59,337 nucleotides of DNA from an uncultured archaeon. Lineage in GTDB: Archaea; Nanobdellota; Nanobdellia; Pacearchaeales; GW2011-AR1. Below are positions 5,279 through 56,425 of this stretch, piece by piece. The translations under genes and the position numbers were made by a program. The notes beneath the pieces are model-generated. The model searched no databases. It saw only the letters and a list, made by a program, of their open reading frames with translations, and was not told where the DNA came from. The stretch is taken from positions 1 through 59,337 of the forward strand of contig CBDUAR010000001.1 in assembly GCA_965365175.1 (NCBI GenBank), in the 5' to 3' direction. Each line of letters starts with the position of its first letter. Within the stretch, counting starts at the first letter, position 1.

Positions 5279-6199
5279 CTATTGATTCTCAGCCAAACCT
5301 TTTCTATCTCTAATCTTCTTAATAACTTCAGTTTGTATGCTCATAGGAATCGGTTCAAATAACTGATCTTTCAATGAAGAAGTTCCTCTACCTTCACTAG
5401 CTGATCTTAAATCATTACTCCAACCAATCATTTCTGAAACTGGAATCTTAGCTTCCATTTCTGCATTAGTTCCTTCTTGTTGAACATCTAACATTTGACC
5501 TCTCTTTCCACCAATCAGTTTAGTCATAGCTCCCAAGAAACTATCTGGAATATCAATTAAATGTATCTGTAATGGTTCTAATAAGGTAGGGCTAGCCTTT
5601 CTCATAGCACCAGTAATAGATTCTCTAACCGCAGGATAAACCTGAGCAGGACCTCTGTGGATAGCATCTTCGTGAAGTTTAATATCCATCAATGAGAATT
5701 TCATCTTAGTACAAGGCTCTCTTGCCAAAGGACCTTGGTTCATAACCATTTCAAAAGCATCTAAGATCATTTCAATAACTTCATTCATGTGAACCTCTCC
5801 ACGAGTTTCATCCATGAAAATATTTCCTTTGTAAACATCTCTAATATTTCTAATTTGATCACCGCTCCAACCATACTTAGATAATATATCTGCCATCTCT
5901 GTAGATTTTTTCTTTATTCTTCCTTCAGGAATATCTCCAGCTTGAATAGCTTCATAGATATCCTCTTCTAAAGGTTCAACTTTGATAAAGAAACTATTGT
6001 GTTTATTAGGAGAACGTCCTTCAGTAGCATCTGAACTCTTATTAACAGTTTCTCTATAAACAATAATTGGAGGAGAAGTCTTAACTTCCAAACCCTTCTC
6101 TGACCTAATTCTATTTTCTATAATTTCTAAGTGTAATTCTCCCATACCAGACATTAAAGATTCACCGGTCTGATCATTAATTTCAATCTTCCTTACCAA
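5279..6199 (-). CDS. fusA: elongation factor EF-2, C-terminal segment (domains III part, IV, V), in the +1 frame relative to the N-terminal segment
   Basis: QTGESLMSGMGELHLEI, PIIVYRETV, and HEDAIHRGPAQV (diphthamide His loop); the only upstream start is a TTG without an SD. Confidence 0.85.
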   Translation of the reverse strand: MVRKIEINDQTGESLMSGMGELHLEIIENRIRSEKGLEVKTSPPIIVYRETVNKSSDATEGRSPNKHNSFFIKVEPLEEDIYEAIQAGDIPEGRIKKKSTEMADILSKYGWSGDQIRNIRDVYKGNIFMDETRGEVHMNEVIEMILDAFEMVMNQGPLAREPCTKMKFSLMDIKLHEDAIHRGPAQVYPAVRESITGAMRKASPTLLEPLQIHLIDIPDSFLGAMTKLIGGKRGQMLDVQQEGTNAEMEAKIPVSEMIGWSNDLRSASEGRGTSSLKDQLFEPIPMSIQTEVIKKIRDRKGLAENQ

Positions 6200-7421
6200 T
6201 TTGTCTCAATATTTCAACAAGCTTAGGCAAGTCAGCAGCCTTAGTAGCTTCAATTGATTTTGTAACAACAGGATCGAATAAGTGTTTAATAGCCTCGAAT
6301 GGTTCAATTGGATTCTTTGAAACTGTTTCACCAGCGAATACATCTTTCAAACCAACTACTCCAACAACATTTCCTGCAGTAACTTGATCAACAACAACTC
6401 GATTAGCACCTTTGTAAACAGATACCTGTTGAATTCTTGTCGGTCTCTTACCAAGATTCATATAAACATCATCACCTTGTTTCAATGTTCCTGAAAACAT
6501 TCTACCTGCAGCGATTTCACCTGCGTGTTTATCTACAACAATCTTAATTGGAACAAAAACAGGTTCTCCATTTGGATCACAGTCAACAAGGTTCTTACCT
6601 AAAGGAGTATCTTTATCTCCGTGCCATATTTTTGGAATTCTATATTTTTGAGCATCAACAGGATTTGGATGGTGTTTAATACTCATATTCAAAACAACTT
6701 CGTGTAATGGAGCTTTCTTTGCTAGTTCTTTATGATTGTCGCTTTGATAGGCATCAATAATATCTTTGAAACTGATGTTATTTGCCTTCATGTAAGGAAA
6801 ACTCAAGGCCCAATTATGAAATGCACTTCCAAATGCAACTGTACCTTCACCAACACCAACTTTCCATTTCTCCTTGTACCCTTCTGGAGCAATAGCTTCA
6901 ATAAGTTTGTTAACGTGATCAATAATTTTGATAAACTTAGCTTGCATATCTTCAGGAGTTAATTTAACTTCGTTGATTAATCTATCAACTTTGTTAATGA
7001 ATAATACTGGTTTAACTAATTCTTTTAGGGCTTGTCTAACAACAGTTTCAGTCTGGGGCATAACACCCTCAACAGCACAAGAAAGAATAACACATCCATC
7101 AACAGCTCTCATAGCTCTTGTAACGTCCCCACCAAAGTCAACATGTCCCGGAGTATCAATTAAATTAATTAAATAATCTTCACCACCAACTTTGTGAATC
7201 ATAGATACCGAAGCCGAATCAATAGTAATACCTCTTGACGCTTCATCTTCGTGGAAATCTAAGGCTCTTTGTTTACCTGCAGTTTCTTCGGAAAGCATAC
7301 CTGCACCAGCCAAAAGATTATCTGAGAATGTAGTTTTACCGTGATCAATATGTGCAGCTATAGCTATATTTCTAATCTTATCTTGCTGCTTCATTAATTT
7401 TGCAATGTCTCCCTCTGCCAT
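6183..7421 (-). CDS. fusA: elongation factor EF-2, N-terminal segment (G domain, domain II, start of III), ends at a TGA
   Basis: AHIDHGKTT, DTPGHVDF and NKVDR motifs; ends ...DLPKLVEILRQIGKED*, where EF-2 normally continues. Confidence 0.9.
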   Translation of the reverse strand: MAEGDIAKLMKQQDKIRNIAIAAHIDHGKTTFSDNLLAGAGMLSEETAGKQRALDFHEDEASRGITIDSASVSMIHKVGGEDYLINLIDTPGHVDFGGDVTRAMRAVDGCVILSCAVEGVMPQTETVVRQALKELVKPVLFINKVDRLINEVKLTPEDMQAKFIKIIDHVNKLIEAIAPEGYKEKWKVGVGEGTVAFGSAFHNWALSFPYMKANNISFKDIIDAYQSDNHKELAKKAPLHEVVLNMSIKHHPNPVDAQKYRIPKIWHGDKDTPLGKNLVDCDPNGEPVFVPIKIVVDKHAGEIAAGRMFSGTLKQGDDVYMNLGKRPTRIQQVSVYKGANRVVVDQVTAGNVVGVVGLKDVFAGETVSKNPIEPFEAIKHLFDPVVTKSIEATKAADLPKLVEILRQIGKED

Positions 7422-7477: not shown

Positions 7478-8083
7478 TTAACGAGCTGAATCTGCCTGAG
7501 CTTCAGTTTCTTTCTTTTTCTTTATAGCAAAACTCTCCCCATTTTCCTCATAAGTCATAATTATCTCATCAGTCAATGCCTGAGTAATTGTTTTTTTCTT
7601 ATTGAATGATTTATCTGATGCACCATGAATCAAATATTTTAGTGCAAGGTTAACTCTTCTTAAAGGTGAAACATCAACTGCTTGAGGATATCTAGCACCA
7701 CCATACTCAATAACAGTAACTTCATCTCTTGGAGCTGCTTTTTCAATTGCAGTAACCAAAACTTGAACTGGATTTTTACTAGTTCTTTTTTCAACTGCTG
7801 CTAAAGCATCCAAAATAATTTTCATGTTCTTAGAATATTTCCCACTTGAATGACCTTGTTCAATCTTATGTTTCTTACCTCTATGTCCACCAGTAGCAAG
7901 CTTGTTCATTAATCTCTCAACAACATTAACTTTTGTTTGTCCTAATTTTTGAACATTTCTTCCATGAGTTTTCAAAGCCAATAGAGGTTTCAAATTTATA
8001 GCTGTCTTTAATCCAGGATCTTCAATTTGAACTTCAGTAACGTCATATAAATCAAAAATTTTGAACGGAGCTAATTCAGCCAT
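7478..8083 (-). CDS. rps7: 30S ribosomal protein S7 (uS7)
   Basis: S7 family sequence; start set at MAELAPF (ATG 8083), which forms a TAAAATG junction with S12. Confidence 0.9.
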   Translation of the reverse strand: MAELAPFKIFDLYDVTEVQIEDPGLKTAINLKPLLALKTHGRNVQKLGQTKVNVVERLMNKLATGGHRGKKHKIEQGHSSGKYSKNMKIILDALAAVEKRTSKNPVQVLVTAIEKAAPRDEVTVIEYGGARYPQAVDVSPLRRVNLALKYLIHGASDKSFNKKKTITQALTDEIIMTYEENGESFAIKKKKETEAQADSAR

Positions 8084-8982: not shown

Positions 8983-9032
8983 ATAATTTTTTTAGAAGAA
9001 TCCTTTTATAAATCTATGCTATTTCTCGAGAG

Positions 9033-11045
9033 TTATTTATTAGTTTCTTTAACAACGTCTTTCTTGGCAGTCTTTTTATCTTCTTCTTTTTTAATCAAAG
9101 GACCAATAACTTTAACCAATAAACCAGGTAGACCAGTACCAACAGGGATTGGTTGATTCAAGATTATATTCTCAATTACCGACGATAATTTGTCTCCAGT
9201 CCCCTTAACTGAAGCGTTCACAAACTGCTTAACAGGAGTTTCGAAAGTAGCTCTAGCAAGTATAGATGATTTATCTGCAATAATTCCCATTCTTGTAACA
9301 CCCTTAACTATTCCTGTATTTGTCATAGCATCAGCAACCAACTTTAAGTGTCTCATATCAATATTAAGACCCTGTGTTGTTAATGTTTCTGAAATTTCAT
9401 TAATAATTAATTGTCTTGCAACTTCAATACCAAACACTCCAGCCATTTCATAGAAATCATTTGATATCGTCTTATCTCCATTAACTTCTTTCAATGCTAG
9501 AACATCAGAAAGATTTGTTCCTAAGGTCATAATTATGTAATCTTTATTTCTCTTTACAACAAGAATTTGCTCAACGCCTTTAATACCTGAAATAATAGTT
9601 TCTTTTAATTTTTCTTTAAGCTTATAGATTTGTCTAAAGTTATATTCGCCAGCATTAATAATTAAACCATTTGCTCCTTCCTTTGTTTTATATCCTAAAT
9701 CATTTAATCTCTCTACAACAGTCTTAGCAGACATATGCGTTTGTCTCAATCCCTTAGGATCAATCTTGATTTCAATCTTTTTATCACTAAAGTTCAAATT
9801 AATTTCTGAAGCAATTTCTTTTAATGTAACTTCTTTAATCTTTTCTGCTAATACTCTAGCATCTTTTTCATTATTATATTGACTGTTCAAATAAATCTCC
9901 ATCTTAGGTGAAGAAGGATTCTTTCTGGCATCAAAAATTTCTATAAGTCTTGGTAGACCCATGGTAACCTGCATCTCAGCTACACCTGCCATATGGAAAG
10001 TATTCAATACCATCTGTGTTGAACTTTCACCGAACGATTGAGCAGCAACAATACCTATTGCTTCACCAGAATCTAATTCTCCATTTGTATGCAATTTAGT
10101 AACGTCCATACCATCATCTCCATATCGGAATTGAATAACATGATTATTACTATCTCTAATTGTTCCATCATATTCTTTTCTAATATCTTGAAGTGCATTA
10201 GCCAATCTTCTATACAAATAACCTGATTTAGGAGTTCTTAGAGCAGTATCCATAAGTGAATCTCTACCAGTAATAGCCTGGAAGAAAAATTCATCCGGTC
10301 TTAGTCCTTTAATAAACGGACTCTTAATGAATCCTCTTGATTTAGGAGAAAGGTCTCCCTTTTCGAAGAATGATAGTGTTCTTTGAGTATAACCAATGTC
10401 AATTCTTCCACCCATGAACGCCTGTTGACCTACAGCTGATGCCATCTGAGTAATATTAAGGATATTACCTCCACCACCTGACTTAATCATATTACTTACA
10501 GGATTATTTTCAGGGAATTCTTTCTTAACTATTGAACCAATCTTAGTTCTAACTTCATTTAATACTTGTAAGATCTTAATTTCTCTTGATTCTTCCAATG
10601 TTTTACCTGGAATAATTTCAAGAGTACCGTCGTTATAGCTATCAATTAATTCTTTTGTCTTTTCTTCAGCCTTCTTAATAACTTCATCACCCATAGCAAT
10701 AACTTCTGGCTTCAAATCTAAATCTTCAACAGAAATTGTAATACCTCTGTTTGAAATATAATTAACACCAAGCTGGAATGCTTTTCTAATAGCATCAAAT
10801 GTTTCAGTTCTTCCAAACTTCTTATCAATAGCCTTAATTATTTCACCATCTTCTTCACCAAATGAACTCTTATCAATAATTCCTTTTTGGACTTGACCAT
10901 CTTTAATCTTAATAACATCATTTGAGAAATCAATCTTAGGTAATAACTCTGAAAAGATTTCTAAACCAGTAACACTTTTCTTAGTAATAACCTTATCAAT
11001 TCCGGACTTATGTAATAATTGAATTGCATAATCTCCAGAAAATTG
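9033..11045 (-). CDS. rpoA: RNA polymerase largest subunit, continuation after the in-frame TAA (rest of the A' region fused directly to the A'' region)
   Basis: Same frame as 11046..12521. Codons 10716-11045 encode conserved sequence (TGLEIFSELLP...) but contain no ATG/GTG/TTG. Bridge-helix block GRDSLMDTALRTPKSGYLYRRL and trigger-loop block GEAIGIVAAQSFGESSTQM lie in one ORF. Confidence 0.75.
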   Translation of the reverse strand, partial: QFSGDYAIQLLHKSGIDKVITKKSVTGLEIFSELLPKIDFSNDVIKIKDGQVQKGIIDKSSFGEEDGEIIKAIDKKFGRTETFDAIRKAFQLGVNYISNRGITISVEDLDLKPEVIAMGDEVIKKAEEKTKELIDSYNDGTLEIIPGKTLEESREIKILQVLNEVRTKIGSIVKKEFPENNPVSNMIKSGGGGNILNITQMASAVGQQAFMGGRIDIGYTQRTLSFFEKGDLSPKSRGFIKSPFIKGLRPDEFFFQAITGRDSLMDTALRTPKSGYLYRRLANALQDIRKEYDGTIRDSNNHVIQFRYGDDGMDVTKLHTNGELDSGEAIGIVAAQSFGESSTQMVLNTFHMAGVAEMQVTMGLPRLIEIFDARKNPSSPKMEIYLNSQYNNEKDARVLAEKIKEVTLKEIASEINLNFSDKKIEIKIDPKGLRQTHMSAKTVVERLNDLGYKTKEGANGLIINAGEYNFRQIYKLKEKLKETIISGIKGVEQILVVKRNKDYIIMTLGTNLSDVLALKEVNGDKTISNDFYEMAGVFGIEVARQLIINEISETLTTQGLNIDMRHLKLVADAMTNTGIVKGVTRMGIIADKSSILARATFETPVKQFVNASVKGTGDKLSSVIENIILNQPIPVGTGLPGLLVKVIGPLIKKEEDKKTAKKDVVKETNK

Positions 11046-12521
11046 TTATAGTCCTAACAAATAATTTCCAGTTATGGCATCACCAATACAACCGATTAAG
11101 TTTGTGTTGTTCTTTGGAGAGATTAAATTTCTCTTAACATCTAATAGTATCTTAGCTTCTGATCTTGCTTCTTCATTTTGTGGAGAGTGAATATTCATCT
11201 CATCACCGTCGAAGTCTGCATTATATGGAGCAGCTGCAGCAGGATGAACTCTGAATGTTCTACCTGGAATAACTTTTACAAAGTGGGCCATTAAACTTCC
11301 TCTGTGTAGACTTGGATGTCTATTGAATAAAACAATATCCCCATCTTGCAAGTGTCTTTCAACTTTATAACCAACTTCTAATTCAGAAATAATTTCTTCC
11401 TTTAGCTCTTCAGTAATTTTCTTTCTTTTTCCATCAGGTCTAATCACATAATTTGCACCCGGATAAACTTCTGCCTCTTTGATAACTTTCTTCAATTTTT
11501 CAATATTAAGATCATTAACAGTCTCTGAAACTGTAACAGTTTTAGCAATCTCGAATGGAACACCAATTTCATTAATAGCAATATATGGATCTGGAGATAC
11601 AACGGTTCTTGCAGAATAATTAACTCTCTTCCCTGCCAAGTTCTTTCTAATTCTACCTTCTTTACCTTTAATTCTTTCAGTAATAGTTTTCAAAGGTTGT
11701 CCCGATCTATGTCTTGCAGGAGGAACTCTACTAACAGTATTATCAAAGAAAGTTGTAACATGATATTGTAATAGATCCCATAAGTCTTCAATAATAACTT
11801 CCGGAGCACCAGCATTCAAATTCTCCCAAAGTCTTTGATTAGCTCTAATAATATCAGATAACTTATGAGTTAAATCATCTTCTGATCTTTCACCAGATTC
11901 TAAAATAATACTCGGTCTTACAGTTACAGGAGGAACTAAAAGAGAAGTCAAAATTGCCCATTCTGGTCTACAAGTTTGAGCATCAACTCCAATTTTTCTT
12001 AATTCTTCATCAGGAATGTTTGTCAAAATTTCTCTAATTTCCGTAGGGAAAAGTCTCTTTCTTCCGATAAAGAAGCTAGTTGGTTTGTCTAACTTAACCT
12101 TTTCATGAACTGCATTACAATAAGGACATTTTTTCTGATCCTTAGCTTTTTTAGCTCTTTCACTTTTTGAATATTTTTCTAATTTCTTTTCATCTAATAG
12201 TAATTTACCACAATCGTGACAGAATGATCTTAGTCCGATTTCAATTAATGGGATATATTTCAAATGAATAACTGCTCTTGCCAAGTCAATACTACCTGGG
12301 TGACCTAAACATTCTTTTATTCTTCCACCACAAGTTCTACATCTTACACCAGGATCAACAGCACCTAATCTTAAATCCATCAAACCACCATCTACAGGAT
12401 AACCATCGATATCATAAAGTTCCGGAGTTACAATTTTAGCTGATGAAACTTTCTTAATCTGTTCAGGACTAAGTAAACTGAATCTAATTTCTCCGATTTT
12501 TTTCTTAACTAATTTTTTCAT
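11046..12521 (-). CDS. rpoA: RNA polymerase largest subunit, N-terminal 491 codons ending at TAA 11046-11048
   Basis: Zn motifs CRTCGG...C and the catalytic YNADFDGDEMNIH; start at MKKLVKKKIGEIRF (ATG 12521), which overlaps the upstream ORF stop (ATGA). Confidence 0.9.
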   Translation of the reverse strand: MKKLVKKKIGEIRFSLLSPEQIKKVSSAKIVTPELYDIDGYPVDGGLMDLRLGAVDPGVRCRTCGGRIKECLGHPGSIDLARAVIHLKYIPLIEIGLRSFCHDCGKLLLDEKKLEKYSKSERAKKAKDQKKCPYCNAVHEKVKLDKPTSFFIGRKRLFPTEIREILTNIPDEELRKIGVDAQTCRPEWAILTSLLVPPVTVRPSIILESGERSEDDLTHKLSDIIRANQRLWENLNAGAPEVIIEDLWDLLQYHVTTFFDNTVSRVPPARHRSGQPLKTITERIKGKEGRIRKNLAGKRVNYSARTVVSPDPYIAINEIGVPFEIAKTVTVSETVNDLNIEKLKKVIKEAEVYPGANYVIRPDGKRKKITEELKEEIISELEVGYKVERHLQDGDIVLFNRHPSLHRGSLMAHFVKVIPGRTFRVHPAAAAPYNADFDGDEMNIHSPQNEEARSEAKILLDVKRNLISPKNNTNLIGCIGDAITGNYLLGL

Positions 12522-12745
12522 TTTTCTTGTTCTAAATGTATTAATTGCATAATACAATATTTTCCTCCATCTATACATTCTTCTTGGAATCTATCTGGAT
12601 TTCTAGATCCAGGACAATGATTTGCATATTCACAGATATTTTGATATCCCGCGCTTAATTCTGTTTTTTTAACCGATTCTCTAGCACCACTACAACCAAC
12701 AAGGCCACCTTCCTGTAGATCTCTCATAAAACATCCGCCAACCAT
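12518..12745 (-). CDS. hypothetical 75-aa Cys-rich protein encoded between rpoB and rpoA
   Basis: ORF fills the spacer exactly: TAAAATG junction with the rpoB stop, ATGA overlap with the rpoA start; six Cys, none in a CxxC pair; locally GC-richer. Confidence 0.6.
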   Translation of the reverse strand: MVGGCFMRDLQEGGLVGCSGARESVKKTELSAGYQNICEYANHCPGSRNPDRFQEECIDGGKYCIMQLIHLEQEK

Positions 12746-12746
12746 T

Positions 12747-15700
12747 TTATTCGTATTTGTTCTTTAAATTTAAATTTGAGTGAATATGTAATCCTTGTAA
12801 TTCTTCCATTAATAGTTTGAATGCATATGAAACTTCAATATGTTCTACACTTTCACTTCCACACATAGGACATGATATCTTATCCTTAATGAAATCATCA
12901 ATTCCAACTGATCCACATTGCGAACAAACTGGAAGTATAATTTTATCTGAATCATATCTTTCCTTTAATAATAGACTAGCACCGTGTGCAACTAATGCTT
13001 GCTGCTCCATCTCTCCTAATCTTAAAGCACCACCACGAGCTCTACCTTCAACTGGCTGCCTTGTCAATAAAGCAACCTTACCAGAAGCTCTACCGTGAAT
13101 CTTATTAGCTACCATATACTTTAATTTCAAGTAATATAAGTTACCAACAAAAATCTTAGATTCCATCTTCTTTCCAGTAATACCATTATACATTGTTTCC
13201 TTACCATCATATCTAAATCCAAGTTGTTTTAATTGATCTTCAAGATCTTTCTTACTTTCACCAGAGAATGAAGTACCATCGATAATTTCACCTTTCAAAC
13301 ATCCCACTTTACCTGCAAGTAATTCTAACAAATAACCTACTGTCATACGACTTGGTAGACCGTGAGGATTGAAAATTACATCTGGTTTAATACCATTTGA
13401 AGTAAAAGGAACATCAGCTTCGGGAATAATAGCACCAACAACACCTTTCTGACCATGTGCTGTAGCGAACTTATCTCCTAATTCAGGGATTCTATGATTT
13501 CTAGTTTTAATCTGAACAATCTTATTTCCTTCTTCGTCTTCTGTAACAAATACTGAGTCAACAGTTCCGTGCTCTTCTTGTCTCATTGTAACTGAAGATT
13601 CTTTCTTAGTTCTAACCGAAATTTCTCTAGCTTCTGACAAGAATTTAGGAGGTGACATCTTACCAATCAATACTTCACCTTCATTAACATTAGCTTCAGG
13701 ATATACAACACCATCGCTTTCTAAGAATCTATAACTTGATTCTAATTTATATCCAGAACTATCTTTTTCAGGAACAGCAATCTCATCCTTTAACCCACCA
13801 GCGTAATTCATCTCAACTGCAGAATAAGGTCTGAAATAGAAACTTCGTCCAACACCTCTCTGAACACTTCCTTTATTGAAAACCAAAGCGTCTTCCATAT
13901 TATAACCTTCATGAGTCATAATAGCAACGATTAAATTTTGTCCAGCAGGATAAGTATTCAAAGTATCATAAACAAAACTTCTTACAATTGGTTTTTGAGG
14001 ATATTCCAAAACACTAACATCTGTATCTAATCTACATAAATAGTTAGCAGCATATAATCCTAATGCTTGCTTCTGTGTCTTTGAACCTCTATTTAATCTT
14101 GAACTCTGATCGTGATTACCATACGGAACTAAAGAAGTAACAACACCAAATAAATCCATAGAGTCAATTTCTAAGTGAGTATGTTGTGGAGTTAATTCTT
14201 CCTCATATAATGCAACCAAAGCATCTTCTTCTTCTGCAGCATCTAAATACTCAATAATTCCTTGTTCAATTAACTTATCCCAATTTAATTGTCCTTGTTC
14301 AATTTGGATTAAATGTTCATTCTTTAATTTAGAAACGCCTTGTTCAACAACAATAGCAGGTCTTAAAGCTCTTCCAGGTTCAGTCGAAATTGAAATATTT
14401 TGTAAATCTTTATCTTCTCTTATATTAAGTTGAATAGGTAATTGATTTGATCTTCTCTTCTCTCTTATATGATTTACGAATTCGTCAGGATTTTTTACAA
14501 CTCCAATGAATCTTCCGTTAAAGAAAACATCAACACCTTCTACACCTTCTTTTTCCAATCCATCTACTTCAAGTTCTTTTAAGAATTTGTTTTCATCTAA
14601 ATCAACTCTTGTAGAAATCTTACTTAATACAGCAAGATTTTTTCTTAAACCAATTTCAGTTCCTTCAGGAGTTTCAATTGGACAGAATCTTCCGTAGTGA
14701 GTAGGATGTAATGTTCTTGCTAAAAAGTTTTCTTGATCTGAAGGCAACATACTTGAAACTCTCTGCAATTGTGAAATTGTAGCCAAATAGTTTGTCTTAT
14801 CCATATTTTGTGTAACACCAGTTCTTTCACCAGTCCATGAACCAGTAGCAATAGCAGATTCAACTCTATGCGAGAACAAAGTAGACTTAGCAATTGTCTT
14901 AATTGAATAAAATTTCTTTCTCTTAGAAGATTTTTGTAATGAGTATTGAATATCTCTAAATAAAATACCTAAGTTGATTCTAAATAGACTAGATAATAAA
15001 TCTCCTGAAAGTCTAACTCTCTTGTTAGCATAATGATCTTTATCAGTTTTTATCTTAGGATTTTCCTTAGCAATTAAATATTGTTTCATCAATTTACATA
15101 ATGTAATTGCTTTCTTCGTTCTATCTTCTCTCTTTCCACCAATATGGGGGAAAAGGTAAGAATCAATTCTTTGTTTAACTCTATCTAAAATTTCTTTTTT
15201 AGTACCTTGAAGATTTGTAGTTTCAGCGATATACATCATTGCATCTTCAGGAGTAGCAATATTAACGAAGTCATAAAGATTAACAATAACGCTATCAGTT
15301 TCACTTCCAATATATTTTGCAATATCTGATTCCTTACTAAGTCCCAAGGCCTTCAATATAACAATTGCTGGAATTTCTCTAAATCTAGAGAAAGATAATT
15401 CAAAAATACCTTCTTTGTTTTCTTTTAATACAGTAGGAATTCTATAAGTTCCTCTTAATGAAAATACTCTTAAAATTAATTCACCCTTCTTGTTCTTTTC
15501 AATGAATGGTTGATTTTCAGCCAAATCTTCAGCCATAACCATAACTCTTTCATTACCATTAATAATAAAGTAACCACCAGTATCTAATGGATCAATATAG
15601 TTTTCAACTAATTCTTCTTTAGACATAGAATTTGTATTACAAATATTACTCTTAACCATAACCGGAATCTTTCCAATATCTACAATTTCAGAATCAACTT

Positions 15701-16004
15701 GATCATCCTTCTTTACAGTTAGTTCCAATTTTATTGGAGCAGAATAAGTTAAATTTCTTAATCTAGCTTCAGCAGGAGTTAATAATGATGAACTACCATC
15801 AGCTTCAATAACCTGAGGTTTTCCAACTTCTATTTTTCCTAAGTTAATTTCAAAATCATCGTTCTGAATATTTTCAGAAATTTCACTAACGATTTCTTGA
15901 AGTCTTTGTTCAATAAAGTTGTTAAAAGAAGTAATATTCGATTCAACTAGCGAGTGATTCTTTAAATAATTCTTAACTACCAAATGTTTATTGTCTTTAA
16001 CCAT
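12747..16004 (-). CDS. rpoB: RNA polymerase subunit B (unsplit, 1085 aa)
   Basis: Conserved blocks GRFCPIETPEG, ATAHGQKGV, LGEMEQQAL and a C-terminal Zn ribbon CSQCG...CPMCG. Confidence 0.97.
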   Translation of the reverse strand: MVKDNKHLVVKNYLKNHSLVESNITSFNNFIEQRLQEIVSEISENIQNDDFEINLGKIEVGKPQVIEADGSSSLLTPAEARLRNLTYSAPIKLELTVKKDDQVDSEIVDIGKIPVMVKSNICNTNSMSKEELVENYIDPLDTGGYFIINGNERVMVMAEDLAENQPFIEKNKKGELILRVFSLRGTYRIPTVLKENKEGIFELSFSRFREIPAIVILKALGLSKESDIAKYIGSETDSVIVNLYDFVNIATPEDAMMYIAETTNLQGTKKEILDRVKQRIDSYLFPHIGGKREDRTKKAITLCKLMKQYLIAKENPKIKTDKDHYANKRVRLSGDLLSSLFRINLGILFRDIQYSLQKSSKRKKFYSIKTIAKSTLFSHRVESAIATGSWTGERTGVTQNMDKTNYLATISQLQRVSSMLPSDQENFLARTLHPTHYGRFCPIETPEGTEIGLRKNLAVLSKISTRVDLDENKFLKELEVDGLEKEGVEGVDVFFNGRFIGVVKNPDEFVNHIREKRRSNQLPIQLNIREDKDLQNISISTEPGRALRPAIVVEQGVSKLKNEHLIQIEQGQLNWDKLIEQGIIEYLDAAEEEDALVALYEEELTPQHTHLEIDSMDLFGVVTSLVPYGNHDQSSRLNRGSKTQKQALGLYAANYLCRLDTDVSVLEYPQKPIVRSFVYDTLNTYPAGQNLIVAIMTHEGYNMEDALVFNKGSVQRGVGRSFYFRPYSAVEMNYAGGLKDEIAVPEKDSSGYKLESSYRFLESDGVVYPEANVNEGEVLIGKMSPPKFLSEAREISVRTKKESSVTMRQEEHGTVDSVFVTEDEEGNKIVQIKTRNHRIPELGDKFATAHGQKGVVGAIIPEADVPFTSNGIKPDVIFNPHGLPSRMTVGYLLELLAGKVGCLKGEIIDGTSFSGESKKDLEDQLKQLGFRYDGKETMYNGITGKKMESKIFVGNLYYLKLKYMVANKIHGRASGKVALLTRQPVEGRARGGALRLGEMEQQALVAHGASLLLKERYDSDKIILPVCSQCGSVGIDDFIKDKISCPMCGSESVEHIEVSYAFKLLMEELQGLHIHSNLNLKNKYE

Positions 16005-16006
16005 CT

Positions 16007-16213
16007 TTATACAACCACACGATAATATAAGTTAACTTTATCGTCTTCCTTTCTCTCTATTTTAATTACATCACCAACGTTACATCCTTCGGGAAGTGCA
16101 ACATCTGTAGAATTTATTCTCGGTAATTGTGATCTAGAAATATTTAATTTAGCTAACAGCTCTTCAGTCTCTTTCTCGCTCATCTTAGAATGTTTGGGTT
16201 GTAGAATGTGCAT
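16007..16213 (-). CDS. rpoH: RNA polymerase subunit H (Rpb5 C-terminal domain homologue)
   Basis: PKHSKMSEKETEELLAKLNI..QLPRI...GDVIKIER...YYRVVV; directly upstream of rpoB. Confidence 0.85.
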   Translation of the reverse strand: MHILQPKHSKMSEKETEELLAKLNISRSQLPRINSTDVALPEGCNVGDVIKIERKEDDKVNLYYRVVV

Positions 16214-19838: not shown

Positions 19839-19964
19839 TTAAGCAGCTGAAGCTTCAAACATTACTCTATCATCCCATTCACACTGCTTACCTTCATTCC
19901 ATTGTTGTTTGGGTCTAATATAACCACACACCCTTGAATACACTTCACATTTAGTTCTTTTCAT
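19839..19964 (-). CDS. 41-aa stand-alone glycyl-radical peptide matching the C-terminus of NrdD
   Basis: My translation: MKRTKCEVYSRVCGYIRPKQQWNEGKQCEWDDRVMFEASAA, containing the RVxGY glycyl-radical motif. GGAGG lies 11 nt upstream of the ATG; the stop is 2 nt from the nrdG ATG. Confidence 0.7.
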   Translation of the reverse strand: MKRTKCEVYSRVCGYIRPKQQWNEGKQCEWDDRVMFEASAA

Positions 19965-19984
19965 TTTTTGTTTTTCCTCCTTTT

Positions 19985-22111
19985 TTAATAAACCTCCGCA
20001 GGAGAATCCTGCGTAATTTCTTTTACTTCCATTCCCTTAACAGCATCAATCGTCTGAGCTCTATTTGCCATTCTCAACTCATTAACTTCTGTCTCTTGCT
20101 CTTTATCAAATCCATTTTCTAAGTCACACTTTGGACAGTAAACATGTTCACCAGCCAAATATCCGTGTTTAGGACAAATAGAGAATGTTGGAGTAATAGT
20201 GAAATAAGGTAAGTGATAACCTTCAGCAATTTTCTTTACCATCTTTTTAACCCCTTCTTTAGTCAGTTTTTCACCAATAAAACCATGAAGAACAGTTCCA
20301 CCTGTATACTGAATTTGCAATTCATCTTGAAGATCAAGAGCTGCAAACAAATCCGGAGTGTAATCTACTGGCAATTGAGTAGAGTTAGTATAATATGGTT
20401 TAGCACCTTCTTCTCTTACTGCTTTCTCGTTTGCCACAAGAATTCTACCAAATCTCTTTTTGTCATTTCTAGCGAATCTATAAGTTGTACCTTCTCCAGG
20501 AGTTGCTTCTAAGTTGTAAATATTTCCAGTTTCCTCTTGGAATTCTTCTAACTTGCTTCTCATAAATTTTAACACATTTAATGCGAATTCTTTTCCTCTT
20601 TCAGTTGCAATAGTTTCTCCTGGCATGAAATTCATTATAGCCTCATTCATTCCCAATAACCCAATAGTACCAAAATGATTTTTCCAATACTCTCCAGTTC
20701 TAGACTTAACACTTCTTAAGTAAAATCTTGAATAAGGATAAAGTCCCTTCTCTGTAAATTTCTCAATAGATTTTCTCTTAATTTCTAAACTCTCTTTAGC
20801 CAATTCCATTAATCTTCCTAATCTAGACAGGAAATCCTCCTCAGTTAAACAAGTAAACCCTAATCTTGGCATATTAATTGTAACAACACCAATACTTCCA
20901 GTTAAAGGATTTGAACCAAATAATCCTCCTCCCCTCTTTCTCAGTTCTGTCTGATCTAACCTTAACCTACAACACATACTTCTAGCATCCTCTGGTTTCA
21001 TATCCGAATTAATAAAATTAGAAAAATAGGGAATACCATATTTTGCAGTCATGTCCCAAATAGTATCATATTCTGGATTATCCCAATCGAAATCTTTTGT
21101 AATATTATAAGTTGGAATAGGAAATGTAAACACTCTTCCATCAGCATCTCCCTCAATCATAGCTTCAGCAAATGCCTGGTTAATCATTATCATTTCTTTT
21201 TTGAATTCTTTATATGTTTCAGGCATAGGTTTCCCTCCAATAATAACTGGCTCATCTTTCATATATGTTGGAACTTCTAAGTCCATTGTTATATTTGTAA
21301 ATGGAGTCTGAAAACCAACTCTAGTAGGAACAGCAAGGTTAAACAAAAATTCTTGCATAGCCTGTTTAACTTCTTTGTAATCTAAATCATCATATCTAAC
21401 AAAAGGTGCCAATAAAGTATCAAAATTAGAGAAAGCCTGAGCTCCTGCAGTTTCACCTTGTAATGTATAAAAGAAATTTACTAGTTGTCCCAATGCAGTT
21501 CTAAAATGTTTTGGAGGTTTTGAAGCCACTTTTCCAGCAACTCCTTTAAATCCAGTCAACAAAACATCTTTCAAATCCCATCCAACACAATACGCTCCCA
21601 AGGTGCCAAGATCATGAATGTGTAGATCACTAGCTTCATGCGCTTGTCTTATAGCCTCGGGATAAACTCTTCTTACCCAGTAATTATTAATTATTTTAGT
21701 AGCAATATAATTATTCAAACCTTGCAATGAAAATCCCATATTTGAATTTTCCTTAACCATCCAATCATTTAAACCAATGTAATCATCAACAACTTCAATT
21801 GTATCAAACAAACCTTTAACATTTCTTAATTCTTCATGACTCTTTCTGTAAAGAATATATGCCTTAGCTACTTTAGCATGACCTTCTTCAATTAATAATT
21901 TTTCAACAGAATCTTGAACATCTTCTACTTCCGGAATTCCTGTCTCTCCGAATCTTTCGTCAAGAATTTTCATTAATTTTTCAGACAACACTTGAGATCT
22001 TTCTCTATCTTTTCCTCCAACTGCTTTTGCAGCTTTCCAAATAGCCTCACTAATTTTATCCTTCTCAAAAGGAACTACACTTCCATCTCTCTTTCTAATT
22101 TTCCTTACCAT
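19985..22111 (-). CDS. nrdD: anaerobic (class III) ribonucleoside-triphosphate reductase large chain lacking the glycyl-radical loop
   Basis: N-terminal ATP-cone, RSMCCRL thiyl-Cys loop, and PYFTITPTFSICPKHGYLAGEHVYCPKCD Zn site. No RVxGY; the C-terminal 45 aa look non-conserved. Confidence 0.92.
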   Translation of the reverse strand: MVRKIRKRDGSVVPFEKDKISEAIWKAAKAVGGKDRERSQVLSEKLMKILDERFGETGIPEVEDVQDSVEKLLIEEGHAKVAKAYILYRKSHEELRNVKGLFDTIEVVDDYIGLNDWMVKENSNMGFSLQGLNNYIATKIINNYWVRRVYPEAIRQAHEASDLHIHDLGTLGAYCVGWDLKDVLLTGFKGVAGKVASKPPKHFRTALGQLVNFFYTLQGETAGAQAFSNFDTLLAPFVRYDDLDYKEVKQAMQEFLFNLAVPTRVGFQTPFTNITMDLEVPTYMKDEPVIIGGKPMPETYKEFKKEMIMINQAFAEAMIEGDADGRVFTFPIPTYNITKDFDWDNPEYDTIWDMTAKYGIPYFSNFINSDMKPEDARSMCCRLRLDQTELRKRGGGLFGSNPLTGSIGVVTINMPRLGFTCLTEEDFLSRLGRLMELAKESLEIKRKSIEKFTEKGLYPYSRFYLRSVKSRTGEYWKNHFGTIGLLGMNEAIMNFMPGETIATERGKEFALNVLKFMRSKLEEFQEETGNIYNLEATPGEGTTYRFARNDKKRFGRILVANEKAVREEGAKPYYTNSTQLPVDYTPDLFAALDLQDELQIQYTGGTVLHGFIGEKLTKEGVKKMVKKIAEGYHLPYFTITPTFSICPKHGYLAGEHVYCPKCDLENGFDKEQETEVNELRMANRAQTIDAVKGMEVKEITQDSPAEVY

Positions 22112-31557: not shown

Positions 31558-31588
31558 ATGAAATGCAATTCATACAAGTTTATAAAGA

Positions 31589-44644: not shown

Positions 44645-45094
44645 TTATGCAATAGTTGCACTTATAATCTGAGAACAGTAGAACAAATCACCTTCAGTCT
44701 TATTGAAATAAACCCTTGCATCAACTCTTATAGGAGTCTCATCCAACTTGTGATCTTCATTACTCTTAGTAGAAGCAGCAGCAATATTACCTTCGATTAA
44801 AACTTCATCCCCAGTCTCACTAGCAGTACTAAAACTTAAAGAAAGACCATCAATAGGAGCTCCAGCAGAACCTACTTTTCTACTCACAGTAAAATTACAT
44901 ACATCTGCATCACAATCCAAATTTTTAATATCAAGACTAATCCCTAAGCATTTTTCTGAATATTCTACCGTTTCAGTTTGGCCTTCAAGCAATCCAGAGA
45001 TAACAGTCCAAACAATACCAACCGCTACAAGAACTAAACCAATCATGATTATAGTCATAACAATAGCAGATAGACCTTTTTTGTTTTTTAACAT
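44645..45094 (-). CDS. archaeal type IV pilin-like protein (class III signal peptide)
   Basis: MLKNKKG/LSAIVMTIIMIGLVLVAVGIVW; AGGAGG lies 8 nt upstream of the ATG at 45094. Confidence 0.65.
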   Translation of the reverse strand: MLKNKKGLSAIVMTIIMIGLVLVAVGIVWTVISGLLEGQTETVEYSEKCLGISLDIKNLDCDADVCNFTVSRKVGSAGAPIDGLSLSFSTASETGDEVLIEGNIAAASTKSNEDHKLDETPIRVDARVYFNKTEGDLFYCSQIISATIA

Positions 45095-45148
45095 TTTTAA
45101 CCTCCTTTCATCCTCCTTTAACATATATAAGTTAGACAATTTGCTTAT

Positions 45149-46336
45149 TTAAACTTTATTAAACTCGTCTAGTAGTTTAAAAAAGTCTTTTTTGTCTAGA
45201 GTTTTATCAACTTCACTCAACCCAATATGTTCTGCCATTTTCCAAAACGCTTCTGGCCTATACTTTTGTTTTCTTAATGAAATAAGTGTTGGAAGTTTAG
45301 GATCATCCCATCCCTTATATTTTCCAGATTCGATCTCTTTTCTAAATAAAGAAGTTGATATTTCCATATCCTTAAAATGATATCTTCCCAAAAATCCTGT
45401 CCAAGGATATTTTTTCCCTAATGTTTCAAAAATTAATTCCTGTCTTTTAGCATTGTCCCGATGATCCTTACCTCTAATAATATGAGTCATTTTCATTTCA
45501 ATGTCATCTACCGAAACTGCCAAATTCATTAAAGGCCAAACCCTATATTTTTTCTTCTGTCTTGGATGAGATGTTTCATTAATTCTAGCTAGGGGAAAAT
45601 CTCTCATTGCAGGATTTTTGTGTTTCATATCTGATTTAAATCTTAAAACTGCTTCTCCTTCTTTAAATCCTTTAAACATTTTTTTCCATCTTTCCGATTG
45701 ATCCTTAAGATCTCTACAAGGACAATCTTTTTTATTTTCTGCCAGCTCTTTAAATTCTTCAGAAGAACAAGTACAAACATAAGCAGCTCCCTTTTTAATC
45801 AATTTTTCAGCATACTTATAATATAATTCCATTCTATCTGACTGTATCGCAACAATCGCCTTATCTTTTGTTAACCATTTAGCATCTTCTTCAATCATCT
45901 TATATGCTTTAGGATCAATATTCTCTGGATTTGTATCTTCAATTCTAACATAAAATTTTCCACCATACTCTCGAACATAATCAAAACTTAAAGAAGCATT
46001 AACTCCATGAAATAAATGCATCGGACCTGAAGCACTTGGGGCAATTCTCATAACAACACCTTTTCCAGCGTTTGGTAATTCGGGTAAACCTTCTCTTTCT
46101 TCTCTTTCACTCAAAAGATCCTTAACTTTTTCAAACTCGCTTTTCTGTTCATCAGGTGTCATTAAATTTACCGCCTTAACAATTTCAGAAATCTTCTTCC
46201 CATAAGTCTTCATATCTTCTTTTTTCAAACCTTCGTTAAATAAAGCAGAAATAACACTTCCTTGTTGAGCTTTACCTTCATAAGTTATAGCATTTTTTAA
46301 CGCATAACCTCTTATTTTTTTATCATCTATTTTCAT
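45149..46336 (-). CDS. gltX: glutamyl-tRNA synthetase-like protein (N-terminal helical domain + catalytic domain), lacking the anticodon-binding domain
   Basis: VVMRIAPSASGPMHLFH (HIGH region), FYVRIEDTNPE, THIIRGKDH, EISTS...GWDDPKLPTL; ends after about 395 aa. Confidence 0.75.
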   Translation of the reverse strand: MKIDDKKIRGYALKNAITYEGKAQQGSVISALFNEGLKKEDMKTYGKKISEIVKAVNLMTPDEQKSEFEKVKDLLSEREEREGLPELPNAGKGVVMRIAPSASGPMHLFHGVNASLSFDYVREYGGKFYVRIEDTNPENIDPKAYKMIEEDAKWLTKDKAIVAIQSDRMELYYKYAEKLIKKGAAYVCTCSSEEFKELAENKKDCPCRDLKDQSERWKKMFKGFKEGEAVLRFKSDMKHKNPAMRDFPLARINETSHPRQKKKYRVWPLMNLAVSVDDIEMKMTHIIRGKDHRDNAKRQELIFETLGKKYPWTGFLGRYHFKDMEISTSLFRKEIESGKYKGWDDPKLPTLISLRKQKYRPEAFWKMAEHIGLSEVDKTLDKKDFFKLLDEFNKV

Positions 46337-55696: not shown

Positions 55697-55759
55697 ATAA
55701 TATTAGAGTGATTTTACTTTATAAATCTTTCTATTGTTGTTTCTTAGAAGTAGTGACAA

Positions 55760-56371: not shown

Positions 56372-56425
56372 AATAATTCGTAATGCTTGGACTTTATAAA
56401 TCTTGTTAATTTAGAAGTGGTAACA

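Follow-up and report, generated by a model that had tools for sequence, protein, structure and literature searches.

Splits of the large subunits of RNA polymerase (RNAP) are tolerated in nature (PMC5484517; PMC7289017), and in Archaea, Cyanobacteria and giant viruses they serve as rare phylogenetic markers. Secondary splits are rare and known only from Cyanobacteria and Mimiviridae, and a secondary fusion of rpoA has been published for Pacearchaeota (Da Cunha et al., 2017, PMC5484517). In this study, we analyzed a 59,337-nucleotide stretch of DNA from an uncultured archaeon (contig CBDUAR010000001.1 of GenBank assembly GCA_965365175.1; hereafter the window, meaning the whole stretch), in which a fused rpoA frame on the minus strand is interrupted by one in-frame TAA. 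The A'/A'' fusion is the published background state of the clade and the TAA is an extra, non-conserved interruption; the unusual point is a nonsense codon in an essential gene in two assemblies. We concluded that the TAA is probably a genuine, young and strain-specific nonsense substitution at a permissive site, neither conserved nor programmed.

The genomes nearest to the window bear the labels Pacearchaeota, Nanoarchaeota or Woesearchaeota, and sequence comparison points to a Pacearchaeota-like host. A single uninterrupted rpoA of 1134–1187 codons was present in 36 Pacearchaeota-like species representatives, and the fused A'+A'' form was found throughout the clade (the window and loci L001-L037 and L088-L111), whereas the sister Woesearchaeota retain the split, with a canonical separate A' of about 850–868 codons in Woesearchaeota-like relatives. 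The window gene has the same fused form. Apart from the TAA, it is collinear and ungapped with the gene of the closest relative (protein P0121, locus L082, from a Logan assembly; 1162 amino acids (aa)), at 94% amino-acid and 90% nucleotide identity; the interruption is found in the window gene and not in the clade's fused form.

Position and surroundings of the stop codon

The rpoA frame runs from the ATG at 12521 to a terminal TAA at 9035–9033 and comprises 1163 codons, giving a coding length of 1162 codons for fused RpoA (A'+A''). As the original prediction had reported, it contains a single internal stop, the TAA at codon 492, around which the frame reads LLGL-X-QFSGDYAIQLLHK (X being the TAA). 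The catalytic motif NADFDGDE occupies residues 434–441, and 50 codons, not the 45 first counted, separate it from the stop. Rpb1 domains 1–5 occur in order and, together with NADFDGD, identify the product as RpoA/Rpo1; its best matches in the Protein Data Bank (PDB) are Thermococcales Rpo1N. Pfam families PF04997 and PF00623 lie upstream of the TAA, and PF04983, PF05000 and PF04998 downstream of it. The proximal part, which is the called 491-aa protein P0001 present in two contigs, matches positions 4–511 of 883 in the NCBIfam A' model. The distal part covers positions 585–872 of that model and positions 32–361 of the A'' model, and since the two models overlap on one polypeptide, A' and A'' are fused, with the remainder of A' joined to A'' in the distal part. 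The 110 codons after the TAA contain no ATG, GTG or TTG, exactly as first described, and normal initiation could not supply the distal part, no canonical start being available until codon 603 (the TTG at 10715). The gene caller begins a 553-aa product at the ATG of codon 610.

The family hidden Markov models (HMMs) resume 21–41 residues after the TAA, and the alignments place the stop at the beginning of the pore-1 domain, in a stretch that is shortened and poorly conserved. About 30–45 residues of Thermococcales Rpo1N are missing from the clade in this initial part of the domain. The original prediction had described the sequence after the stop as recognisably conserved; this holds against close relatives (ungapped alignment and low substitution ratios, given below) but not against the family models. 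The column of codon 492 aligns near residue 517 of Thermococcus/Pyrococcus Rpo1N, at a two-residue indel, and is hypervariable in 113 close relatives (E in 32, N in 19, D in 17, G and H in 12 each, K in 9). In an AlphaFold model of a relative, of moderate overall quality (pLDDT 63) and used for local secondary structure only, this place is a two-residue linker between helices 480–491 and 494–506, with a local pLDDT of about 84. A hypervariable column, a predicted interhelical linker and an indel point together mark the site as permissive.

Compared with L082, the ratio of nonsynonymous to synonymous substitution rates (dN/dS) in rpoA was 0.044 upstream of the stop, 0.083 for codons 501–602 and 0.063 from codon 603 to the end; the eight codons 493–500 gave 1.8. 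These values suggest that the distal part has been under strong purifying selection on a measurable timescale, although dN/dS is blind to very recent inactivation or relaxation of selection. The several lesions and relaxed selection of a pseudogene were not found: the gene has one lesion, the distal frame has no further ones, and dN/dS is 0.06–0.08 downstream of the stop as against 0.044 upstream. At the 591 rpoA columns conserved in at least 95% of sequences, the window deviates at only four.

A TAA decoded as an amino acid, by reassignment or by a dedicated suppressor tRNA, would be in line with the in-frame stop itself and with nothing beyond it. As the original prediction had stated, TAA is a normal stop in the window: it ends 51 of the 69 long open reading frames (ORFs), including rpoA, rpoB and ribosomal protein genes, with TGA ending 11 and TAG seven. 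No other conserved gene of the window contains an in-frame TAA, and those examined, EF-2 apart, were full length; a glutamyl-tRNA synthetase/pilin pair and an ATPase pair, considered as interrupted genes, proved to be separate genes. The tRNAs of the window are limited to Lys-UUU, Trp-CCA and His-GUG, and Rfam gave the same three. We therefore regard a decoded TAA as highly improbable, and reassignment appears effectively refuted by the use of TAA across the window.

The stop in a second assembly and in relatives

The TAA might stem from an error in sequencing, consensus or assembly, or represent a minority allele picked by the assembler, with AAA or GAA as the real codon and rpoA intact. The gene is intact in all relatives, the nearest of which has AAA, different by a single base. 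Furthermore, 5.5% of all possible single-base substitutions in rpoA give a stop, so one nonsense codon arises easily by mutation or error. However, the identical TAA with identical flanks was present in the 51.7-kb scaffold_49 of a second assembly (ENA ERZ23498577, SHIN18-1, sample SAMEA104707366). Over 14.2 kb, this scaffold differs from the window at four isolated single-nucleotide polymorphisms (SNPs), two of them synonymous in rpoA (12345 and 12297), and in a divergent end of 120 nucleotides (nt).

The two assemblies disagree on another lesion. In the window, EF-2 (5279–7421, minus strand) is split into ORFs of 412 aa and 306 aa in different frames, owing to a 30-nt patch around 6190–6212 with nine mismatches and a 14-nt deletion. 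EF-2 is continuous at this point in relatives, and the ENA assembly carries an intact 718-aa EF-2 that is 99% identical (scaffold_4660, L168); the break in the window probably reflects misassembly at this spot or a minor haplotype. The assemblies are thus independent enough to differ, yet they agree on the rpoA TAA. Since the same TAA occurs in a second, non-identical assembly without the EF-2 frameshift, a simple assembly error is unlikely.

Other observations bear on an artefact from both sides. The window assembly does carry the EF-2 deletion patch that the other lacks, the isolated SNPs and divergent patches between the assemblies point to a strain-mixed population, and the two assemblies are probably derived from one sample and may share reads, so that their agreement is not fully independent. 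A lone rpoA frameshift also occurs in another Pacearchaeota contig, which puts such breaks in public assemblies at roughly 1 in 100. Against this, the assemblies agree at the TAA base while differing elsewhere, contigs of 52–59 kb imply a reasonable coverage at which a majority substitution error would be very improbable, and the remainder of rpoA is clean. Two substitutions, E493Q and N500I, are unique to the window within 26 nt, and a single base-call error cannot account for both. Considering all of these points, an artefact is unlikely, and the TAA is likely to be present in the DNA of the dominant genotype.

In the frameshifted contig (L084; ENA ERZ27297473 k141_884407, 204 kb, Pacearchaeota-like), one nucleotide is deleted (GAG[G]AA) eight codons past NADYDGDEMNIH, which breaks rpoA at 6340–6380. 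After the shift, the frame stops at a TGA overlapping an in-frame TTG (TTGA), and this TTG opens a 686-aa distal ORF. Either an error or a second young split may underlie the break; it proved uninformative as to whether such splits recur, the nearest intact relative being a different species. In the window itself, positions 7605–7766 form a strain-variable junction in the S7/EF-2 region that the window's assembler bridged; the ENA assembly breaks here into two scaffolds with a 160-nt overlap showing 14–17 mismatches to the window.

Relatives from three independent collections, about 180 in total, were compared for a shared stop. TAA at codon 492 was found in none of 36 GTDB species-representative loci, none of 31 further metagenome loci and none of about 110 full-length protein clusters (1146–1172 aa). 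The closest relative reads NYLLGL-K-EFS, with AAA in place of the TAA. The alignment with orthologues that had been proposed as a check thus returned a hypervariable column, a lysine codon in the nearest gene and a stop in no relative. Truncated N-terminal homologues of about 491 aa (P0011, P0014, P0029, P0046 and others) were considered as carriers of the same stop and rejected, because they end elsewhere, at contig ends or after frameshifts. An exact-pattern scan of JGI metagenomes with N at the first base of the stop recovered neither the same nor an alternative allele. Exact look-ups of the 491-aa, 553-aa and rpoB products led to no contig beyond the same ENA scaffold, and those of two further window proteins and an EF-2 fragment gave no match. 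The species is known from one sample only.

These comparisons indicate that the TAA is unique to one population. Because no relative shares the stop, they also argue that conserved or programmed recoding is excluded: programmed readthrough would have the stop and its context conserved in relatives, whereas no relative has the stop and only one of 113 has Q at codon 493. An established split would be conserved in related genomes and have its own canonical start near the break; the break is absent from all three collections, and the first ATG, GTG or TTG lies 110 codons downstream.

The original prediction had weighed an error, stop-codon readthrough and a new split with non-canonical reinitiation. 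The error has become less likely with the second assembly, readthrough of a programmed kind is out, and the split has gained a named restart candidate, the ATT at codon 500. A fourth option had been omitted, namely that the TAA is genuine and the allele defective, complemented or transient, in which case the distal part would not be expressed from this allele. An intact copy might reside on another chromosome copy (a polyploid heterozygote) or elsewhere in the genome, or a short-lived lineage might have been sampled by chance. This option would agree with the long stretch lacking a canonical start, with the inefficiency of all known rescue routes, with a lesion absent from all relatives in a species from one sample, and with a relaxation too recent for dN/dS to register. 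However, the gene lies in a canonical operon (rpoH, rpoB, a 75-aa ORF, rpoA, a NusA-like gene, S12, S7 and EF-2), which marks it as the primary rpoA copy, and DPANN genomes are small and would not usually hold a second rpoA. A collection of about 15 billion proteins yielded no intact rpoA allele of this species. The two assemblies have the TAA in common although they picked different alleles at other polymorphic sites, which speaks for TAA as the majority allele or a fixed one, and a lethal majority allele cannot persist. We consider a defective allele rather improbable.

Expression of the distal part

A real and dominant allele would still require the distal part to be produced. Our tentative explanation, the likeliest of those considered but short of probable, is that the genuine TAA is tolerated as a nascent split and that the distal piece is restarted at or near AUU codon 500. 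As a plausible model, a young substitution one base from AAA or GAA would have placed the TAA in the linker at the boundary between the active site and pore 1. The clamp and the catalytic aspartates would reside on the proximal piece of 491 residues, non-canonical initiation at or near AUU-500 would give a distal piece of about 663 residues, and the two would assemble into an active enzyme, like naturally split large subunits elsewhere. The more specific statement, that a nonsense mutation splits the re-fused A'/A'' subunit at a site no known organism uses and that a new AUU starts the distal half, is doubtful, though it may prove correct. Read support for the TAA, use of the AUU as a start and assembly of the two pieces are what we infer here.

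The restart model draws on N500I, eight codons past the stop, which is the sole radical deviation among the window's four at highly conserved columns. Through the change from AAT to ATT, codon 500 becomes the first near-cognate start in frame, at 21 nt from the stop and with a GGAG 8 nt upstream (Table 1). The nascent split also draws support from the permissive site, from a distal part under purifying selection and free of further lesions, from the natural splits of large RNAP subunits and from NrdD, a mature split with its own SD sequence and ATG in the same genome. Several points weigh against the nascent split with a restart at AUU-500. AUU initiates poorly, and in archaea aIF1 disfavors non-canonical starts (PMC6237735). 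Termination-reinitiation is nearly abolished at about 20 nt in Haloferax and Escherichia coli (PMC10666635), and the distance here is 21 nt. The GGAG is not unique to the window, G being present at its column in 14 of 113 relatives. GGAG or GAGG motifs resembling a Shine-Dalgarno (SD) sequence precede five of 55 gene starts in the window against a background of 4.7%, about 4% of in-frame ATT codons carry such a motif by chance, and the hairpin predicted downstream of the stop would make both the GGAG and the AUU inaccessible. N500I may be no more than a tolerated change, as Ile or Val is normal at the equivalent position in Woesearchaeota (A-I-D-L-L). The cluster of lineage-specific changes after the stop shrank with closer relatives, leaving E493Q and N500I. 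Finally, every relative reads through, so there is no evolutionary validation that a split works at this site.

That cluster had first given P of about 0.001, and it was given up once G496 and Y498 turned out to occur in closer relatives as well. A strong SD logic in this genome was likewise rejected as weak: the majority of first genes appear to be leaderless and carry a TATA-like box some 25 nt upstream. Many ATGs are preceded, at about 22–28 nt, by TTTATAAA/TTTATATA boxes and have no SD sequence (e.g., 8983–9010, 31558–31585, 55697–55725 and 56372–56400). This suggests that first cistrons are mostly leaderless and that SD-like GGAG/GAGG motifs occur at few internal genes only.

Alternatively, full-length RpoA might be made from a genuine TAA by readthrough, with a near-cognate tRNA (Gln, Lys, Glu or Tyr) reading some of the UAA codons, aided by a weak termination context. 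Archaeal aRF1 is a homologue of eRF1. E493Q changes the +4 base from G or A to C: the first base of codon 493 is G in 29, A in six and C in one of 36 relatives, and CAA at this codon occurs only in the window. The resulting TAA-CAA-TTT fits four of the five key positions of the eRF1-type leaky context CAA UUA (PMC9272376). Readthrough would require no new start codon, the stop column accepts almost any residue, and a hairpin of –12 kcal/mol is predicted 5 nt downstream. However, UAA is the least leaky stop, with 0.5% readthrough in a standard and 5.6% in a weak context in a release-factor-free mammalian system (PMC9272376), and the leaky-context rules are eukaryotic and may not apply to archaea. 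The hairpin is ordinary, its stability being equalled or beaten in 17 of 131 relatives (13%), and as a readthrough-stimulating structure it was rejected as not significant. The window holds no suppressor tRNA and uses TAA as its main stop. At low levels of readthrough, the truncated catalytic fragment would be in large excess, and N500I would remain in the protein at a position conserved at 96%. We consider readthrough unlikely.

Table 1. Coordinates of the rpoA interruption, the two parts of the gene and associated features in the window.
Feature	Coordinates	Strand	Evidence or comparison
In-frame TAA, rpoA codon 492	11046..11048	-	Frame translation; same TAA in ENA scaffold_49
CAA, codon 493, C at +4 (TAA-CAA-TTT)	11043..11045	-	E in 92/113, Q in 1/113 relatives
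Candidate SD-like GGAG (GGA GAT, codons 496-497), 8 nt upstream of ATT-500	11033..11036	-	Sequence
ATT, codon 500, first in-frame near-cognate start after the stop, candidate restart	11022..11024	-	N in 108/113, I in 0/113 relatives
Predicted RNA hairpin from 5 nt after the stop, not significant	11000..11040	-	-12.1 kcal/mol; z = -2.1 for a 135-nt stretch
Proximal rpoA, 491 codons, Rpb1 domains 1-2 including NADFDGDE	11049..12521	-	Pfam PF04997, PF00623
Distal rpoA, same frame, 670 codons plus real stop TAA (9033-9035), Rpb1 domains 3-5	9033..11045	-	NCBIfam
First canonical in-frame starts after the TAA: TTG 10715-10713 (codon 603), ATG 10694-10692 (codon 610)	10692..10715	-	Frame scan
Operon: rpoH 16007-16213, rpoB 12747-16004, 75-aa ORF 12518-12745, closely coupled to rpoA	12518..16213	-	ORFs, profiles

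Some neighboring genes were also characterized. The 75-aa ORF between rpoB and rpoA has no Pfam hit; it starts just after the rpoB stop (TAAAATG) and ends in a TGA that overlaps the ATG of rpoA (ATGA). Small ORFs of variable length (66, 130 and 58–59 aa) occupy its place in L082, L083 and L085, and none does in L084. The glutamyl-tRNA synthetase (45149–46336, minus strand) has 395 aa, matches positions 7–397 of 567 in archaeal gltX models and is without the anticodon-binding C-terminal domain; the ORF that follows it (44645–45139) is type IV pilin/archaellin-like and not the missing domain.

Comparison with known split and leaky genes

If the stop is real and the enzyme works, this locus would be a natural snapshot of how large RNAP subunits become split: a break right after the catalytic loop would be tolerated, and a non-canonical restart or UAA readthrough would, in a rare case, sustain an essential archaeal gene. 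Should the stop be an artefact or the allele defective, the practical lesson is that single in-frame stops in essential genes of metagenome-assembled genomes need read-level confirmation. Alternative assemblies of the same sample sort lesions fast when compared, the EF-2 frameshift having failed and the rpoA stop having passed.

As regards readthrough, the closest known case is the stop-CAA-UUA context of the tobacco mosaic virus (TMV) type, which shares with the window C at +4, CAA directly after the stop and a release factor of the eRF1/aRF1 type. In contrast, the window stop is UAA and not UAG or UGA, position +9 is mismatched, and the context is not conserved in relatives; no demonstration of a leaky stop of this type in archaea was found in the literature. 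As regards a restart, the restarts of lacI and T4 rIIB and termination-reinitiation (Huber et al., 2019, 2023) resemble the model in that the ribosome resumes at a nearby start-like codon and yields a C-terminal fragment. The difference is that the only candidate in the window is an AUU at 21 nt, whereas coupling collapses at about 20 nt (PMC10666635). With regard to the start codon, the window likewise stands apart from the precedents. Documented restarts use AUG, GUG or UUG.

Split genes of Nanoarchaeum and other DPANN archaea likewise encode essential proteins in pieces that assemble, in reduced genomes. Established split genes come with a start codon of their own, often also with an SD sequence, whereas the rpoA break has neither a canonical start nor a homologous precedent. 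The window holds an example of the former kind. NrdD (19839–22111, minus strand) consists of a 708-aa body followed, in another frame, by a 41-aa ORF (19839–19964) with the glycyl-radical motif RVCGY, preceded by AAGGAGG and then ATG, an arrangement shared by the ENA contig. For the mini-ORF, about 1,960 representative homologues were obtained (E up to 0.001); of the best 150, nearly all are 41–125 aa long, so that it appears to be a widespread natural split. With its own SD sequence and ATG, it would represent a mature split in the same genome, unlike the rpoA break.

Among RNAP subunits, the canonical archaeal A' (Rpo1N) and A'' (Rpo1C) are likewise two polypeptides from adjacent co-oriented frames in the rpoH-rpoB-rpoA operon. 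However, the archaeal split lies about 370 residues further downstream, A' ending near model position 880, where the frames of the window and of all Pacearchaeota-like relatives are continuous. In addition, A'' has its own ATG and its split is conserved across phyla, whereas the window stop occurs in one population only. The cyanobacterial and plastid split into gamma/RpoC1 and beta'/RpoC2 is closer in place, being a secondary split of the same subunit shortly after NADFDGD, and it demonstrates that the enzyme can function with a break between the active-site module and the funnel. The two positions do not coincide: the proximal part ends at position 520 of 626 in the rpoC1 model, position 15 of rpoC2 aligns to residue 69 past the stop, and the cyanobacterial break is accordingly about 55 residues downstream of the TAA. 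It is also ancient and conserved, with a normal start codon for rpoC2, unlike the break described here. If our reading is true, the window would capture the first step that the established splits (A'/A'', B'/B'' and rpoC1/rpoC2) must once have passed.

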